Source of the DNA: Escherichia coli | GTDB taxonomy: Bacteria; Pseudomonadota; Gammaproteobacteria; Enterobacterales; Enterobacteriaceae | DNA: 64,000 bases | NCBI RefSeq assembly: GCF_013122565.1 | Contig: NZ_CP053258.1 | Direction: 5' to 3' (one strand) | Shown here: piece after piece, positions 1,650 through 58,884 of the stretch | Layout of the letters: each line of letters begins with the position of its first letter | Numbering within the stretch: position 1 is the first letter of the stretch | Made by a program: the position numbers and the translations under genes | The notes under the pieces: model-generated | Database searches by the model: none | What the model was told of the DNA's origin: nothing | What the model saw: the letters and a program-made list of their open reading frames with translations, nothing else

Positions 1650-1737
1650 GGAAGTGTGGCCGAGCGGTTGAAGGCACCGGTCTTGAAAACCGGCGACCCG
1701 AAAGGGTTCCAGAGTTCGAATCTCTGCGCTTCCGCCA
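1650..1737 (+). tRNA. serT: tRNA-Ser (anticodon UGA), 88 nt with long variable arm
   Basis: GGAAGTGTGGCCGAGCGG...GGTTCCAGAGTTCGAATCTCTGCGCTTCCGCCA; anticodon loop CTTGAAA; T-loop GTTCGAATC. Confidence 0.95.
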
Positions 1738-9479: not shown

Positions 9480-11633
9480 ATGCTAAGTCCTTTGCTCAAA
9501 CGCTATACCTGGAACAGCGCCTGGCTGTATTACGCGCGTATTTTTATTGCGCTTTGTGGAACCACAGCGTTTCCGTGGTGGCTGGGTGATGTAAAACTGA
9601 CGATTCCGCTGACGCTGGGGATGGTGGCAGCGGCGCTGACCGATCTCGATGACCGACTGGCGGGACGTTTGCGTAACCTCATCATTACGCTGTTCTGCTT
9701 TTTTATCGCCTCGGCCTCAGTAGAATTGCTGTTTCCCTGGCCCTGGCTATTTGCGATTGGCTTAACGCTCTCTACCAGCGGCTTCATTTTGCTCGGCGGT
9801 CTGGGTCAACGCTATGCAACAATTGCCTTCGGTGCATTGCTGATCGCCATTTACACTATGTTGGGAACATCACTGTATGAGCACTGGTATCAGCAGCCGA
9901 TGTATCTGCTGGCCGGTGCCGTCTGGTACAACGTCCTGACACTTATTGGTCATCTGCTGTTCCCGGTCCGCCCGCTGCAGGACAACCTGGCGCGTTGCTA
10001 TGAACAACTGGCGCGTTATCTTGAGCTCAAGTCGCGCATGTTTGATCCTGATATTGAAGATGAAAGCCAGGCACCGCTGTACGATTTGGCTCTCGCCAAC
10101 GGTCAGCTGATGGCGACATTGAATCAGACGAAACTCTCGCTGCTGACCCGCTTACGTGGCGATCGTGGTCAACGGGGAACGCGTCGCACGCTGCATTATT
10201 ACTTTGTCGCACAGGATATTCACGAGCGTGCCAGCTCTTCTCATATTCAGTATCAAACATTGCGTGAACATTTTCGCCACAGCGACGTGCTGTTCCGTTT
10301 TCAGCGGCTGATGTCGATGCAGGGCCAGGCGTGCCAGCAACTGTCACGCTGTATTTTGCTGCGTCAGCCTTATCAACATGATCCGCATTTTGAGCGCGCT
10401 TTTACGCATATTGATGCTGCCCTGGAGCGGATGCGCGATAACGGCGCGCCTGCCGATTTACTCAAAACACTGGGATTTTTGCTGAACAATTTACGCGCCA
10501 TTGATGCCCAACTGGCAACAATTGAATCAGAACAGGCCCAGGCACTGCCCCATAATAATGACGAAAATGAGCTCGCTGATGACAGCCCGCACGGATTGAG
10601 TGATATCTGGCTGCGTCTTAGCCGTCACTTCACGCCGGAATCCGCCCTCTTCCGTCATGCGGTAAGAATGTCGCTGGTGTTGTGCTTCGGCTACGCCATC
10701 ATTCAAATAACCGGAATGCATCACGGGTATTGGATCTTGCTGACAAGTTTGTTTGTCTGCCAGCCAAACTATAACGCCACGCGCCACCGCCTGAAGTTAA
10801 GGATTATTGGTACGCTGGTAGGTATCGCCATTGGCATTCCTGTGCTGTGGTTTGTACCGTCACTGGAAGGGCAGCTGGTGCTACTGGTTATTACCGGCGT
10901 GCTCTTTTTTGCCTTCCGTAACGTGCAATATGCCCATGCAACGATGTTCATCACACTTTTGGTGCTACTGTGTTTTAACTTGCTGGGTGAAGGTTTTGAA
11001 GTAGCGTTACCTCGCGTAATCGATACGCTGATTGGTTGTGCCATTGCGTGGGCGGCAGTGAGCTACATCTGGCCTGACTGGAAGTTTCGCAATCTGCCGC
11101 GCATGCTCGAACGCGCCACAGAGGCCAACTGTCGCTATCTCGATGCCATACTGGAGCAATACCATCAGGGGCGTGATAACCGTCTGGCGTATCGTATTGC
11201 CCGCCGCGATGCACACAACCGTGATGCTGAACTGGCGTCGGTGGTATCAAATATGTCCAGCGAACCGAACGTTACCCCGCAAATTCGCGAAGCCGCGTTT
11301 CGGTTGCTGTGCCTTAACCATACGTTTACCAGCTATATCTCAGCCCTCGGTGCTCACCGGGAGCAGTTAACTAATCCTGAAATTCTGGCGTTTCTTGATG
11401 ACGCAGTTTGCTATGTTGATGACGCGTTACATCATCAACCTGCTGATGAAGAACGCGTCAATCAGGCATTAGCTGGCCTGAAACAGCGGATGCAGCAACT
11501 TGAACCACGGGCAGACAGCAAAGAACCTCTGGTCGTACAACAAGTTGGGTTATTGATTGCATTACTGCCAGAGATTGGTCGTCTGCAACGCCAGATTACT
11601 CAAGTTCCGCAGGAAACTCCTGTTTCGGCGTAA
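9480..11633 (+). CDS. yccS: Inner membrane protein YccS (FUSC-like), 717 aa
   Basis: ORF 9471..11633; start set at second ATG (MLSPLLKRYTWNSAW) per remembered 717-aa length; 9471 is an alternative. Confidence 0.85.
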   Translation: MLSPLLKRYTWNSAWLYYARIFIALCGTTAFPWWLGDVKLTIPLTLGMVAAALTDLDDRLAGRLRNLIITLFCFFIASASVELLFPWPWLFAIGLTLSTSGFILLGGLGQRYATIAFGALLIAIYTMLGTSLYEHWYQQPMYLLAGAVWYNVLTLIGHLLFPVRPLQDNLARCYEQLARYLELKSRMFDPDIEDESQAPLYDLALANGQLMATLNQTKLSLLTRLRGDRGQRGTRRTLHYYFVAQDIHERASSSHIQYQTLREHFRHSDVLFRFQRLMSMQGQACQQLSRCILLRQPYQHDPHFERAFTHIDAALERMRDNGAPADLLKTLGFLLNNLRAIDAQLATIESEQAQALPHNNDENELADDSPHGLSDIWLRLSRHFTPESALFRHAVRMSLVLCFGYAIIQITGMHHGYWILLTSLFVCQPNYNATRHRLKLRIIGTLVGIAIGIPVLWFVPSLEGQLVLLVITGVLFFAFRNVQYAHATMFITLLVLLCFNLLGEGFEVALPRVIDTLIGCAIAWAAVSYIWPDWKFRNLPRMLERATEANCRYLDAILEQYHQGRDNRLAYRIARRDAHNRDAELASVVSNMSSEPNVTPQIREAAFRLLCLNHTFTSYISALGAHREQLTNPEILAFLDDAVCYVDDALHHQPADEERVNQALAGLKQRMQQLEPRADSKEPLVVQQVGLLIALLPEIGRLQRQITQVPQETPVSA

Positions 11634-12225
11634 GAGAGTCAGCCCATTCTGCAAGCTCCTGGCGGCGTGCCACCGGGAGCGCAGCTTCATGAATACCGAT
11701 AATGGCACCTTCAAGCATAAACAGAATCTTTTCTGTCACCAGACTGTTTTGCTGCCGCAGTCGCAACCAACACATTTTTGCCCCAAGTATACGTAACGCC
11801 CGTACATCCTTAATCCCCACCTCCCCGAGAATCGCTTCCAGATGAAAAGACATATTGGGCAAATCTTTCAGTCTTTCCCGGGTATTGCGCGTGCTTTTCT
11901 CTTTCAGCGCTGCATCGAGAGAATATTTCGACAGACGCACCAGCTTCAGTTGATTTCGCCATAGACTTTCATCAACCCGATAGTAATTGAGGGTAACGGA
12001 TCGGCCACACTTTTTATATGTCAGCCAGACAGGCGGATGTTTTACACAGTACTGTGCACTTTGCTCACAAGCCCGAAGATACAACTCACCATCAGAAACC
12101 ATCGCAAACACCGTGTCGTCAACGGTCAGGCTGTAACTGCCAAACAATGATCGGTATTCAATTGTGCCCAACGTTGCCAGGTATTCTTGTGATTTATAGA
12201 TCCGCTTATAGGAGAGGCTTTTCAT
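11596..12225 (-). CDS. sxy: Competence regulator Sxy/TfoX, 209 aa
   Basis: ORF 11596..12225; MKSLSYKRIYKSQEYLATLGTIEYRSLFGSYSL; 3' end overlaps yccS by 38 nt. Confidence 0.92.
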   Translation of the reverse strand: MKSLSYKRIYKSQEYLATLGTIEYRSLFGSYSLTVDDTVFAMVSDGELYLRACEQSAQYCVKHPPVWLTYKKCGRSVTLNYYRVDESLWRNQLKLVRLSKYSLDAALKEKSTRNTRERLKDLPNMSFHLEAILGEVGIKDVRALRILGAKMCWLRLRQQNSLVTEKILFMLEGAIIGIHEAALPVARRQELAEWADSLTPKQEFPAELE

Positions 12226-12401
12226 AAAATTCCTTTTAAAATCATAACATAAAAGAATGATTCACATTAACGGATCCGTTAACTACGAAAATAGGCAACT
12301 TATTCTTAAGGGGCAAGATTAATTTATGTTTTCCCGTCACCAACGACAAAATTTGCGAGGCTCTTTCCGAAAATAGGGTTGATCTTTGTTGTCACTGGAT
12401 G

Positions 12402-12421
12402 TACTGTACATCCATACAGTA
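12402..12421 (+). promoter_or_regulatory. LexA operator (SOS box) in the sulA promoter
   Basis: TACTGTACATCCATACAGTA, perfect CTGT-N8-ACAG palindrome, 23 nt upstream of the sulA ATG. Confidence 0.9.
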
Positions 12422-12443
12422 ACTCACAGGGGCTGGATTGATT

Positions 12444-12953
12444 ATGTACACTTCAGGCTATGCACATCGTTCTTCGTCGTTCTCATCCGCAGCAAGTAAA
12501 ATTGCGCGTGTCTCTACGGAAAACACTACAGCCGGGCTTATCAGTGAAGTTGTCTATCGCGAAGATCAGCCCATGATGACGCAACTTCTTCTGTTGCCAT
12601 TGTTACAGCAACTCGGTCAGCAATCGCGCTGGCAACTCTGGTTAACACCGCAACAAAAACTGAGTCGGGAATGGGTTCAGGCATCTGGGCTACCCTTAAC
12701 GAAAGTAATGCAGATGAGCCAGCTCTCCCCTTGCCACACCGTGGAATCAATGGTTCGCGCTTTACGCACGGGCAATTACAGTGTGGTGATCGGTTGGTTG
12801 GCAGATGATTTGACTGAAGAAGAGCATGCTGAACTTGTTGATGCGGCAAATGAAGGTAACGCTATGGGGTTTATTATGCGTCCGGTAAGCGCTTCCTCTC
12901 ACGCAACGAGACAACTTTCCGGGCTAAAAATTCACTCTAATTTGTATCATTAA
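12444..12953 (+). CDS. sulA: SOS cell-division inhibitor SulA, 169 aa
   Basis: ORF 12438..12953 trimmed to [15 protein letters not shown]. Confidence 0.93.
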
Positions 12954-16904: not shown

Positions 16905-17423
16905 ATGGTAGATAAACGCGAATCCTATACAAAAGAAGACCTTCTTGCCTCTGGTCGCGGTGAACTGTTTGGCGCTAAAGGCCCGCAATTGCCAGCACCG
17001 AACATGCTGATGATGGACCGTGTGGTCAAAATGACCGAAACGGGTGGTAACTTCGACAAAGGGTATGTTGAAGCAGAACTGGATATCAATCCGGATCTGT
17101 GGTTCTTCGGATGCCACTTTATTGGCGATCCGGTTATGCCGGGATGCCTGGGCCTGGACGCGATGTGGCAGCTGGTAGGGTTCTACCTCGGCTGGCTGGG
17201 CGGCGAAGGTAAAGGCCGCGCGCTGGGCGTTGGCGAAGTGAAATTCACTGGTCAGGTACTGCCGACAGCGAAAAAAGTGACCTACCGTATTCACTTTAAA
17301 CGCATTGTTAATCGTCGTCTGATTATGGGTCTGGCAGATGGCGAAGTGCTGGTTGATGGTCGTCTGATCTATACCGCCAGCGACCTGAAAGTCGGTCTGT
17401 TCCAGGATACGTCTGCCTTCTGA
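16905..17423 (+). CDS. fabA: 3-hydroxydecanoyl-ACP dehydratase/isomerase FabA, 172 aa
   Basis: ORF 16707..17423 trimmed to [23 protein letters not shown]; ATG confirmed at 16905. Confidence 0.95.
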
Positions 17424-27597: not shown

Positions 27598-28608
27598 TTA
27601 GATATGGGTAACGATTTCTTTAATCAGCGGCGGACCTTTAAAAATAAAACCAGAATAAATTTGCACCAGTGAGGCACCCGCAGCAATCTTTTCACGCGCA
27701 GCGATAACCGAGTCGATGCCGCCAACACCGATGATCGGTAAGCGACCGTTTAATTCCAGTGACAAGCGGCGAATAATTTCGGTGCTTTTTAACTGAAGCG
27801 GACGACCACTTAAGCCACCGGTTTGATCGCAATTTTTCATTCCCTGAACGAGGGAACGATCGAGTGTGGTATTGGTTGCAATAACGCCATCAATATTATG
27901 GCGAACTAAACTATCGGCAACCTGGATCAATTCTTCTTCAGAAAGATCCGGCGCGATCTTCACTGCGATCGGCACATATTTATGGTGCATCGCTTGCAAA
28001 TCATTTTGCTTATTTTTAATCGCGGTTAAGAGATCATCCAGCGCTTCACCATATTGCAGAGTGCGTAATCCTGGGGTATTCGGCGATGAAATATTGATGG
28101 CGATATATCCCGCATAGGCATAGATTTTTTCCATACAAATCAGATAGTCATCTTTGCCCTGCTCCACTGGCGTATCTTTATTTTTGCCGATATTAATACC
28201 CAGGACGCCGTCATAATGGGCCTTTTTTACGTTCTCTACGAGGTTATCAACGCCAAGATTATTAAAGCCCATACGGTTGATCAAACCTTCGGCATCTACC
28301 AGACGAAAGAGACGGGGCTTGTCATTACCTGGCTGTGGACGTGGCGTGACGGTACCGATCTCGATCGATCCAAATCCCATCGCGCCTAACGCGTCAATGC
28401 ACTCCCCGTCTTTATCAAGACCGGCTGCCAGACCAAGCGGATTTTTAAACGTCAGGCCCATGCAGTTAACAGGTTTCGCAGGCACTTTCTGCCGCACCAG
28501 TGCTTCAAACGGCGTTCCGGTAATGCGGCGTAATTGCTGAAAAGTAAACTCATGAGCGCGCTCTGGATCGAGCTGGAAAAGGGCTTTACGAACGAAGGGG
28601 TAGTACAT
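27598..28608 (-). CDS. pyrD: Dihydroorotate dehydrogenase (quinone) PyrD, 336 aa
   Basis: ORF 27598..28635 trimmed to [21 protein letters not shown]; ATG confirmed 28606-28608. Confidence 0.95.
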
Positions 28609-28694
28609 GAACTCTCCTGGATTCCCGGTGTGCAAACCGGGGGCGTATTATGTGCGAGTTCGGACCAAAAGGGAATTGACCTGCGGCAAAAAAA

Positions 28695-43019: not shown

Positions 43020-44222
43020 ATGACACAATTCGCTTCTCCTGTTCTGCACTCGTTGCTGGATACAGATGCTTATAAGTTGCATATGCAGCAAGCCGTGTTT
43101 CATCACTATTACGATGTGCATGTCGCGGCGGAGTTTCGTTGCCGAGGTGACGATCTGCTGGGTATTTATGCCGATGCTATTCGTGAACAGGTTCAGGCGA
43201 TGCAGCACCTGCGCCTGCAGGATGATGAATATCAGTGGCTTTCTGCCCTGCCTTTCTTTAAGGCCGACTATCTTAACTGGTTACGCGAGTTCCGCTTTAA
43301 CCCGGAACAAGTCACCGTGTCCAACGATAATGGCAAGCTGGATATTCGTTTAAGCGGCCCGTGGCGTGAAGTCATCCTCTGGGAAGTTCCTTTGCTGGCG
43401 GTTATCAGTGAAATGGTACATCGCTATCGCTCACCGCAGGCCGACGTTGCGCAAGCCCTCGACACGCTGGAAAGCAAATTAGTCGACTTCTCGGCGTTAA
43501 CCGCCGGTCTTGATATGTCGCGCTTCCATCTGATGGATTTTGGCACCCGTCGCCGTTTTTCTCGCGAAGTACAAGAAACCATCGTTAAGCGTCTGCAACA
43601 GGAATCCTGGTTCGTGGGCACCAGCAACTACGATCTGGCGCGTCGGCTTTCCCTCACGCCGATGGGAACACAGGCACACGAATGGTTCCAGGCACATCAG
43701 CAAATCAGCCCGGATCTAGCCAACAGCCAGCGAGCTGCACTTGCTGCCTGGCTGGAAGAATATCCCGACCAACTAGGCATTGCATTAACCGACTGCATCA
43801 CTATGGATGCTTTCCTGCGTGATTTCGGTGTCGAGTTCGCCAGTCGGTATCAGGGCCTGCGTCATGACTCTGGCGACCCGGTTGAATGGGGCGAAAAAGC
43901 CATTGCACATTATGAAAAGCTGGGAATTGATCCACAGAGTAAAACGCTGGTTTTCTCTGACAATCTGGATTTACGCAAAGCGGTCGAGCTATACCGCCAC
44001 TTCTCTTCCCGCGTGCAATTAAGTTTTGGTATTGGGACTCGCCTGACCTGCGATATCCCCCAGGTAAAACCCCTGAATATTGTCATTAAGTTGGTAGAGT
44101 GTAACGGTAAACCGGTGGCGAAACTTTCTGACAGCCCTGGCAAAACTATCTGCCACGATAAAGCGTTTGTGCGGGCGCTGCGCAAAGCGTTCGACCTTCC
44201 GCATATTAAAAAAGCCAGTTAA
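43020..44222 (+). CDS. pncB: Nicotinate phosphoribosyltransferase PncB, 400 aa
   Basis: ORF 42972..44222 trimmed to [24 protein letters not shown]. Confidence 0.93.
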
Positions 44223-57581: not shown

Positions 57582-58884
57582 GCGCCTGTACCTTGGCTCC
57601 GTAATCATTAATCGGCTGCCATTTCGCTGGCAGTCCGGTGAAATCTGCTTGCGCTACGCCAAGACGTACCGCCTGATCAATAACAATGCGCGCAACGTCA
57701 AAGTGACGTGCACGCGGATACTGTGACAGATATTCGCGTACCACCAGACCAAGATCCAGCGGCACTTGTCTGGTTTTGTACACAGCAAGTTGTTCTTCGA
57801 TGATCGCCGCCAGCTGTTCGCGGATCTCGTTAAATTCTTCGTATTCCAAATCTGGCGGAAGTTCCCCAGTCACTTCTTCATCGCGCAGTGCCATCTCTTC
57901 GTCACGCATATCCAGCAGACGATCGGCATTGGCATAAGTTAGCGCCCACGGCTCATCAAAATAGGTTTGTACCGACTGACGTAACCGCTGAGCAAAGACG
58001 CGGTTTTTATCCATATCGATCGCGGTACGAATAAATTTATGTACGTGGCGGTCGTAGCCAATCCACAAATCGATGGATTGCTGGCCCCAACTGATAATAC
58101 GGTCGAGTTTGCTCTGCAGATCGAACACCAGACGATCGACAAAATGCAGATCGTCATGAGTCATCGTCGCATCCTGAATGCGCAACAGATTAGCCTGCAA
58201 TTTGTCGCCTGCCGCTTCCAGCGTATCCTGCAATTCACGCAGCGTTCCGGAAGTTTCCGAAAGCAACAATTCACAGCTGGAAATCGCCGCCCGCCAGTCT
58301 TTGTTCAGCAACTGGGCAATATCGTCCTTCACCTGCTGCTGCTGTTCGTCCATCAGACGTTGCGTCAGGTCGATACTGTCGAAAATTTCTGCTACCGAAT
58401 ATTTCAGTGGCGCATAGACATTACGGTGCCAGTGAAATTCATCACCGCCCTCTTCGGCGGCATCTGCTGCGCGTTTTAGCTCACCCGCCACAATCGACAA
58501 CTGCATAGAAAGACGCAGCGTAGAAAACTCGCGCTGACGGATGTAATAGTCAGTAATGCCGATGCCGAGCGGCGTCAGACGGTAAATTGCGTTCCCTTCC
58601 GCCTGCTCGCTGGTAAAGCGGTTCAGCAGACGTTGACGCACCATGTCGTTGATCGCGTTGTTGGCGCGCACGCCGATGGTTTCGCTGGTTTGCTCAAACG
58701 CATCACTCACATGGCGGAATGCATCCACCAGCTCGCCTTCACTCATCTCACCATCCAGACGCTCGCTGTTCAGCGTGGCAACCGCCAGCAGAAAAGAGAG
58801 TCGGTCTACCGGCAGCGAGATGGAGAAGTCATTTTTTCTGGCCCAGGCAACCAGTTCGGGGACTGTCTGGGAAAATTCACTCAT
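57562..58884 (-). CDS. mukF: Chromosome partition kleisin MukF, 440 aa
   Basis: ORF 57562..58884; [25 protein letters not shown]. Confidence 0.94.

Follow-up and report, generated by a model that had tools for sequence, protein, structure and literature searches.

The genes sxy and sulA of Escherichia coli are transcribed divergently, and the short region between them raises the question of whether the palindrome in front of sulA is the operator bound by LexA and how this palindrome is arranged relative to the promoter of the gene. The window, which is the whole 64,000-nucleotide stretch of DNA analysed, includes the coding sequence of sulA, the SOS-induced cell division inhibitor (12444–12953, plus strand; 169 amino acids plus a stop codon), and the sxy (tfoX) coding sequence (11596–12225, minus strand, with the start codon at 12225). 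The product of sulA scored 169.7 bits against the Pfam SulA family PF03846 (cut-off of 23.1 bits) and thus belongs to this family, and the product of sxy contains the Pfam domains TfoX_N and TfoX_C. The RefSeq annotation of the matching E. coli region has sulA and sxy at the same positions. The gene order is yccS, sxy, a 218-bp gap, sulA, ompA, and matP; the gap (12226–12443, from the ORF coordinates) is the sxy–sulA intergenic region, in which both promoters are located.

Numerous E. coli genomes, among them that of a K-12 derivative, have a gap that is 100% identical to these 218 bp. With 501 bp around the palindrome as the query, 5425 of the 5426 complete E. coli genomes were matched with up to 99.8% identity; no 100% match to 12100–12600 was found among the complete E. 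coli genomes of the collection, the best match being 99.8%. SulA of the window differs from K-12 SulA (WP_000288710.1) only by the substitution I91M (codon 91, 12714–12716). Among the complete E. coli assemblies, four plasmid records also carry a copy of the sxy–sulA region. A scan of the window at the Rfam gathering thresholds revealed only a PyrD leader (97.9 bits) and one tRNA (28603–28676, minus strand, and 1650–1734, plus strand, respectively), with no match in the sxy–sulA region.

The LexA operator of sulA

The palindrome, TACTGTACATCCATACAGTA, was read directly from the plus strand at 12402–12421. Its 20 bases form a 7 + 7 inverted repeat with a 6-nt centre, and we describe it as a left half-site TACTGTA (12402–12408), a right half-site ATACAGTA (12414–12421), and a variable centre between them (12409–12413). 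The inner segment CTGTACATCCATACAG (12404–12419) has its CTG and CAG motifs inverted and exactly 10 bp apart (CTGT-N8-ACAG), which is the obligatory spacing of a LexA operator. The box is separated from the sulA ATG (12444) by 22 nt, so that, counted from its last base, the A of the ATG is the 23rd nucleotide. The preliminary description of this DNA, which had placed a CTGT-N8-ACAG LexA operator 23 nt upstream of the sulA start codon, was therefore exact in both coordinates and sequence. It had also called the SOS box perfect, which is true of both half-sites but not of box positions 8, 11, and 12 (all C), which depart from the consensus TACTG(TA)5CAGTA; the sulA box matches 17 of the 20 positions of this consensus.

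The bare CTGT-N8-ACAG motif is not significant alone: it occurs once in the window versus 0.56 expected occurrences, and at least once in 39 of 100 shuffles. The longer consensus TACTG(TA)5CAGTA is reached with no more than 3 mismatches by the sulA box and by none of the 100 shuffles. For scoring, a position weight matrix was built with the sulA box left out, from the 17 remaining LexA boxes listed in Table 4 of PMC3009722. The sulA box scored 20.6 bits with this matrix, and the 17 published boxes range from 16.5 to 30.4 bits, which ranks the sulA box in the middle of the validated boxes and not at the top. A low matrix score, which had been named beforehand as grounds for giving up the operator, was thus not obtained. 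The sulA box leads all sites on either strand of the window by more than 9 bits; the runner-up, with 11.1 bits, falls below the mean best score of random sequence (12.5 bits). According to the exact score distribution, a score of 20.6 bits has P = 7e-8 per position, and chance alone should give 0.009 such sites per window (both strands) and 3e-5 across the 218-bp gap; of 1000 windows simulated with a first-order Markov model, only 6 attained 20.6 bits. With C instead of the T allele at box position 8, the sulA box loses about 6 bits in this matrix, and the 3 non-consensus central bases predict a mid-range LexA affinity for the sulA box.

The matrix revealed no second LexA-like site in the sxy–sulA gap or elsewhere in the window on either strand. 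The three next-best LexA-like 20-mers (57768–57787, 43156–43175, and 17077–17096; 10.5–12.9 bits) were rejected as operators, as they score no better than random sequence, whose best sites average 12.5 bits.

The box is well documented. Table 4 of PMC3009722 lists the exact 20-mer for sulA, and the sulA (sfiA) box appears in the lists of Lewis 1994, Fernandez de Henestrosa 2000, and Courcelle 2001 (quoted in PMC2994835, PMC11228462, and PMC3009722). The tight repression by LexA that had been proposed for this operator agrees with PMC2994835, in which the box has a heterology index of 4.65 and carries the comment “binds LexA tightly”, and with the matrix score and the cross-species footprint described below. 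A heterology index of 5.4 is given in PMC11228462. These values (4.65–5.4) place the sulA box mid-table among SOS boxes, weaker than those of tisB, umuD, dinD, and sbmC. Azidothymidine (AZT) induces sulA 20-fold with a lexA dependence of 15-fold (PMC11228462), sulA is not induced in lexA3 (PMC9505508), and its induction by UV was recorded on tiling arrays (PMC3009722). LexA binding constants are available for 28 chromosomal operators in PMC5999292, where sulA is a “late” SOS promoter with a high UV threshold (high ED50). PsulA is in routine use as an SOS biosensor, and the sulA box motif itself has been mutagenised. LexA binding at the box and lexA-dependent induction rest on this literature. 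LexA has reportedly also been mapped by ChIP-chip by Wade et al. in 2005.

Taken with the matrix score and the conservation below, we consider it nearly certain that TACTGTACATCCATACAGTA serves the sulA promoter as its only LexA operator. The operator has already been published, with the same sequence, gene, and context as in the classical LexA regulon lists; because the sulA box is known in the literature, the central finding contains nothing new. The sulA box is a classic regulatory site that underlies countless SOS reporters (PsulA-gfp and SOS chromotest-type assays), and the value of the present assignment lies in annotation.

Conservation and the putative sulA promoter

To describe the conservation of the upstream region, E. 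coli was aligned with 8 other genera (Citrobacter, Intestinirhabdus, Trabulsiella, Salmonella, Kosakonia, Leclercia, Raoultella, and Enterobacter), in which SulA is 75–88% identical to E. coli SulA and the yccS–sxy–sulA–ompA–matP synteny is kept. The alignment revealed that (i) TACTGTA and ATACAGTAAC are invariant in the 9 genera; (ii) TTGATCTTT, which includes TTGATC, is likewise invariant in the 9 genera; (iii) all 14 half-site positions are invariant, compared with 59 of the 218 intergenic positions (hypergeometric test, 3e-9; 9 genera); (iv) only 1 of the 6 central columns (12409–12414) is invariant in the 9 genera; and (v) the 17-bp spacer between TTGATC and the box is kept in length, with 3 of its 17 positions invariant in the 9 genera. 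Fixed half-sites around a variable centre have the look of a dimeric repressor site.

The breadth of this arrangement was measured by a scan for the pattern TTGATCTTT-N15-ACTGT-N8-ACAGT in one genome per species, which returned at least 120 loci; the scan is ascertained on the motif and therefore measures breadth, not the rate of box loss. A SulA homologue (36–95% identity) is located 0–37 nt downstream in 113 of the 120 matches listed. Among the matches listed, these 113 sulA-linked loci belong to 32 named genera of Enterobacterales from the families Enterobacteriaceae, Erwiniaceae, Yersiniaceae (Rahnella), Pectobacteriaceae (Dickeya and Lonsdalea), and Hafniaceae. The box positions that the pattern does not force, T1, A7, A13, and T14, are each present in 113 of 113 of these listed loci; at position 8, 89 of them have T and 24 have C, and position 11 is free. 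The two arms of the box show no compensatory change across the 113 loci among the matches listed.

A consensus promoter scan of 12150–12520 on both strands found no sigma-70 promoter at the scanner threshold; therefore, the sulA promoter was placed by conservation and spacing. The putative −35 element is TTGATC (12379–12384, plus strand) within the invariant TTGATCTTT, and the putative −10 element is TACTGT (12402–12407, plus strand), which lies 17 bp downstream of the −35 and consists of the same bases as the left LexA half-site. TACTGT has a TAnnnT skeleton, in which T-12, A-11, and T-7 of the −10 hexamer are kept (3 of 6 consensus positions), and the 2 hexamers together match 7 of 12 consensus positions. 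The transcription start is predicted at A12414 on the plus strand, 7 nt after the putative −10 and inside the operator, which would give a leader of 30 nt. From this arrangement, we infer a sulA −10 formed by the left LexA half-site and a transcription start near A12414, within the box. The earlier statement that the box lies over the sulA promoter would hold if the left half-site is the −10, as the conserved TTGATC at 17-bp spacing suggests; the consensus scanner did not find this promoter.

Box positions C12-A13-T14 (12413–12415) correspond to the predicted start. C12 is present in 105 of the 113 sulA-linked loci among the matches listed, and A13 and T14 in all 113; at position 12, T would be the consensus base for LexA. 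The triplet would fit a pyrimidine (−1)/purine (+1) start context, and the non-consensus C12 is probably kept for this context rather than for LexA.

Two other promoter placements were rejected. An alternative sulA promoter with TTGTCA (12389–12394) and TACAGT (12414–12419) would have its −35 in the non-conserved spacer and a spacing of 19 bp, which is too long. An extended −10 (TGn) was discarded, as the bases preceding the box are not conserved.

With the left half-site as the −10 and the start inside the box, a bound LexA dimer would cover the −10 and the start region and sterically exclude RNA polymerase; upon DNA damage, the RecA-stimulated self-cleavage of LexA would free the −10 region, and SulA made from the free promoter would block the assembly of the FtsZ ring until repair is complete. 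The conservation data would thus illustrate a repressor site and a promoter that use the same bases: the half-sites may have become fixed through the second role of one of them as the −10, and the centre may be free to tune affinity.

The conservation could in principle be that of the sulA core promoter only (the −10 and the start region), with LexA acting elsewhere or indirectly. The coincidence of the left half-site with the putative −10 and the resemblance of C12-A13-T14 to a start context fit this explanation; however, it accounts neither for the invariance of the whole right arm ATACAGTA (+1 to +8) nor for the exact two-fold symmetry and the score of 20.6 bits with an independent LexA matrix. 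Moreover, neither the gap nor the rest of the window offers another LexA-like site, and the literature names this very 20-mer as the sulA box. We therefore regard a core promoter without LexA at the box as very improbable.

An inverted repeat of 7 + 7 bases with a 6-nt centre could also form a nucleic-acid hairpin, such as a terminator or another RNA structure, or serve a different palindrome-binding regulator. Arms that are invariant without compensatory change are expected of a protein site and not of a hairpin, and not one compensatory change was seen in the 113 loci among the matches listed. No terminator-like site was found in a scan of 12150–12520, no T-run follows the palindrome, and the left arm would be outside the sulA transcript if transcription starts at the predicted A12414. 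The match is specifically to the LexA consensus, which also argues against another regulator, and we consider a hairpin or a foreign regulator site extremely unlikely. As to a chance palindrome without function, for which the expectation of 0.56 bare CTGT-N8-ACAG motifs per window leaves room, the full-length match has P = 7e-8 per site with 3e-5 sites expected in the 218-bp gap, and the box is invariant at the same place upstream of sulA in 32 genera among the matches listed. The probability of such an accident is negligible, and this explanation is already refuted by the conservation and the published regulation.

Comparison with known operators and natural variants

Compared with the catalogued E. 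coli sulA (sfiA) SOS box, the operator of the window has the same 20-mer, gene, and context (yccS–sxy–sulA–ompA–matP) and shows no difference. Every LexA-operator feature tested at the sequence level is present in the sulA box, and conservation argues for the predicted overlap with the promoter. The sulA box of Salmonella enterica has the half-sites, the −35, and the divergent sxy neighbour all as in E. coli, and is located 21 nt from the ATG with a heterology index of 1.49 (PMC8072944, Table 1). The 2 boxes differ in the centre, which is ATGAAT in Salmonella and ACATCC in E. coli; the Salmonella box is closer to the consensus, with a heterology index of 1.49 versus 4.65 and a matrix score of 27.2 versus 20.6 bits. 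In recA, a single LexA box represses a sigma-70 promoter by occlusion, as is predicted for sulA. By contrast, the recA box lies between the −35 and the −10 (PMC5999292), whereas in sulA the −10 and the start point themselves seem to be covered by the box.

At least 4 alleles of the sulA operator exist in E. coli, with all differences confined to box positions 8 and 11 (12409 and 12412). Their centres are ACATCC (the window and K-12), ATATCC, ACATTC, and ATATTC. The 65-bp promoter segment is the same as that of the window in 2935 of 5425 genomes, and the exact ATATCC and ACATTC haplotypes are present in 485 and 791 genomes, respectively. T at position 8 is the majority base across Enterobacterales (89 of 113 loci among the matches listed) and scores about 6 bits better than C. 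E. coli lineages may therefore differ in LexA affinity at sulA, and the C/T alleles at positions 8 and 11 might make some lineages filament at a different level of DNA damage from others, which is the one mildly new angle of these data.

The sulA −35/operator block is also kept where the sxy side of the gap has changed. In Raoultella (locus L008, 1036–1500), the sxy–sulA gap is 465 bp long, and its sxy-proximal part is unrelated to E. coli. In 3 Klebsiella/Raoultella loci (L072, L090, and L123), a match to sxy is absent within 400 bp upstream. The block is retained in all of these loci.

In a clade of Vibrio (V. breoganii, V. ezurae, Vibrio sp. UCD-FRSSP16_30, and V. superstes; L026, L041, L054, and L095), the module TTGATCTTT-N14-TACTGT..ATACAGTA is located shortly upstream (18 nt in 3 of the 4 loci) of an ORF of about 124 amino acids (MHFQNLNN...). 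The V. breoganii ORF scored 23.0 bits against Pfam SulA, for which the cut-off is 23.1 bits. This borderline ORF is probably a short, divergent SulA that keeps the enterobacterial promoter–operator architecture. Several SulA clusters (P0001, P0007, P0009, P0066, P0073, and others) are recorded with 187–227 amino acids versus 169; these lengths probably stem from gene calls extended too far at the N-terminus, which would run through the operator and the promoter.

The divergent sxy promoter

The preliminary description had noted that the same 218-bp gap must also hold the sxy promoter. The length of the gap was confirmed, and a putative CRP-S site of the divergent sxy promoter (TGCGA-N6-TTCCG; 12351–12372, 22 bp) was found in it, with half-sites TGCGA at 12354–12358 and TTCCG at 12365–12369. 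The half-sites TGCGA and TTCCG are named for the sxy promoter in PMC6728893, with TGCGA proximal to sxy; the site in the window has the same sequence and the same order, with TGCGA on the sxy side. The CRP-S site is kept in 8 of the 9 genera, and TGCGA is at a constant offset from TTGATC in 85 of the 113 loci among the matches listed. The half-sites (12354–12369) are 10 bp upstream of the sulA −35, and the 22-bp site ends 6 bp from it. Conservation extends to the bases that separate the two (gAAA.T.aGg). The constant spacing may reflect 2 tightly packed, independently constrained elements.

The 2 elements could also be under shared bidirectional control, in which CRP–Sxy occupancy would modulate sulA as well and thereby couple the competence regulator to division arrest. 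The centre of the CRP-S site is at about −52.5 relative to the predicted sulA start, which is not a canonical CRP activation position, and a literature search for a link of Sxy or CRP-S to sulA regulation found none. The evidence here is neither for nor against such shared control, which we consider rather unlikely.

For the core promoter of sxy, our guess from the sequence is a −35 at 12316..12311 (TTGCCC) and a −10 at 12293..12288 (TATTTT) on the minus strand, both of which lie in conserved blocks. At 12267–12282, 42–57 nt upstream of the sxy ATG, the 16 bp TTAACGGATCCGTTAA form a perfect palindrome centred on a GATC. Its segment AACGGATCCGTTA is kept in 7 of the 9 genera, as is the block GAAAATAGGCAAC (12288–12300) beside it. 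The palindrome could be a regulator site or a hairpin in the sxy leader.

In E. coli NH-21 (NZ_CP148034.1; locus L013, 2641–3410), the sxy CRP-S site is split by an IS1 element between its half-sites, at approximately 12358–12366 of the window, with duplication of the target GGCTCTTT. The IS1 cuts sxy off from the distal CRP-S half-site; the −35 and the operator of sulA are not disrupted.
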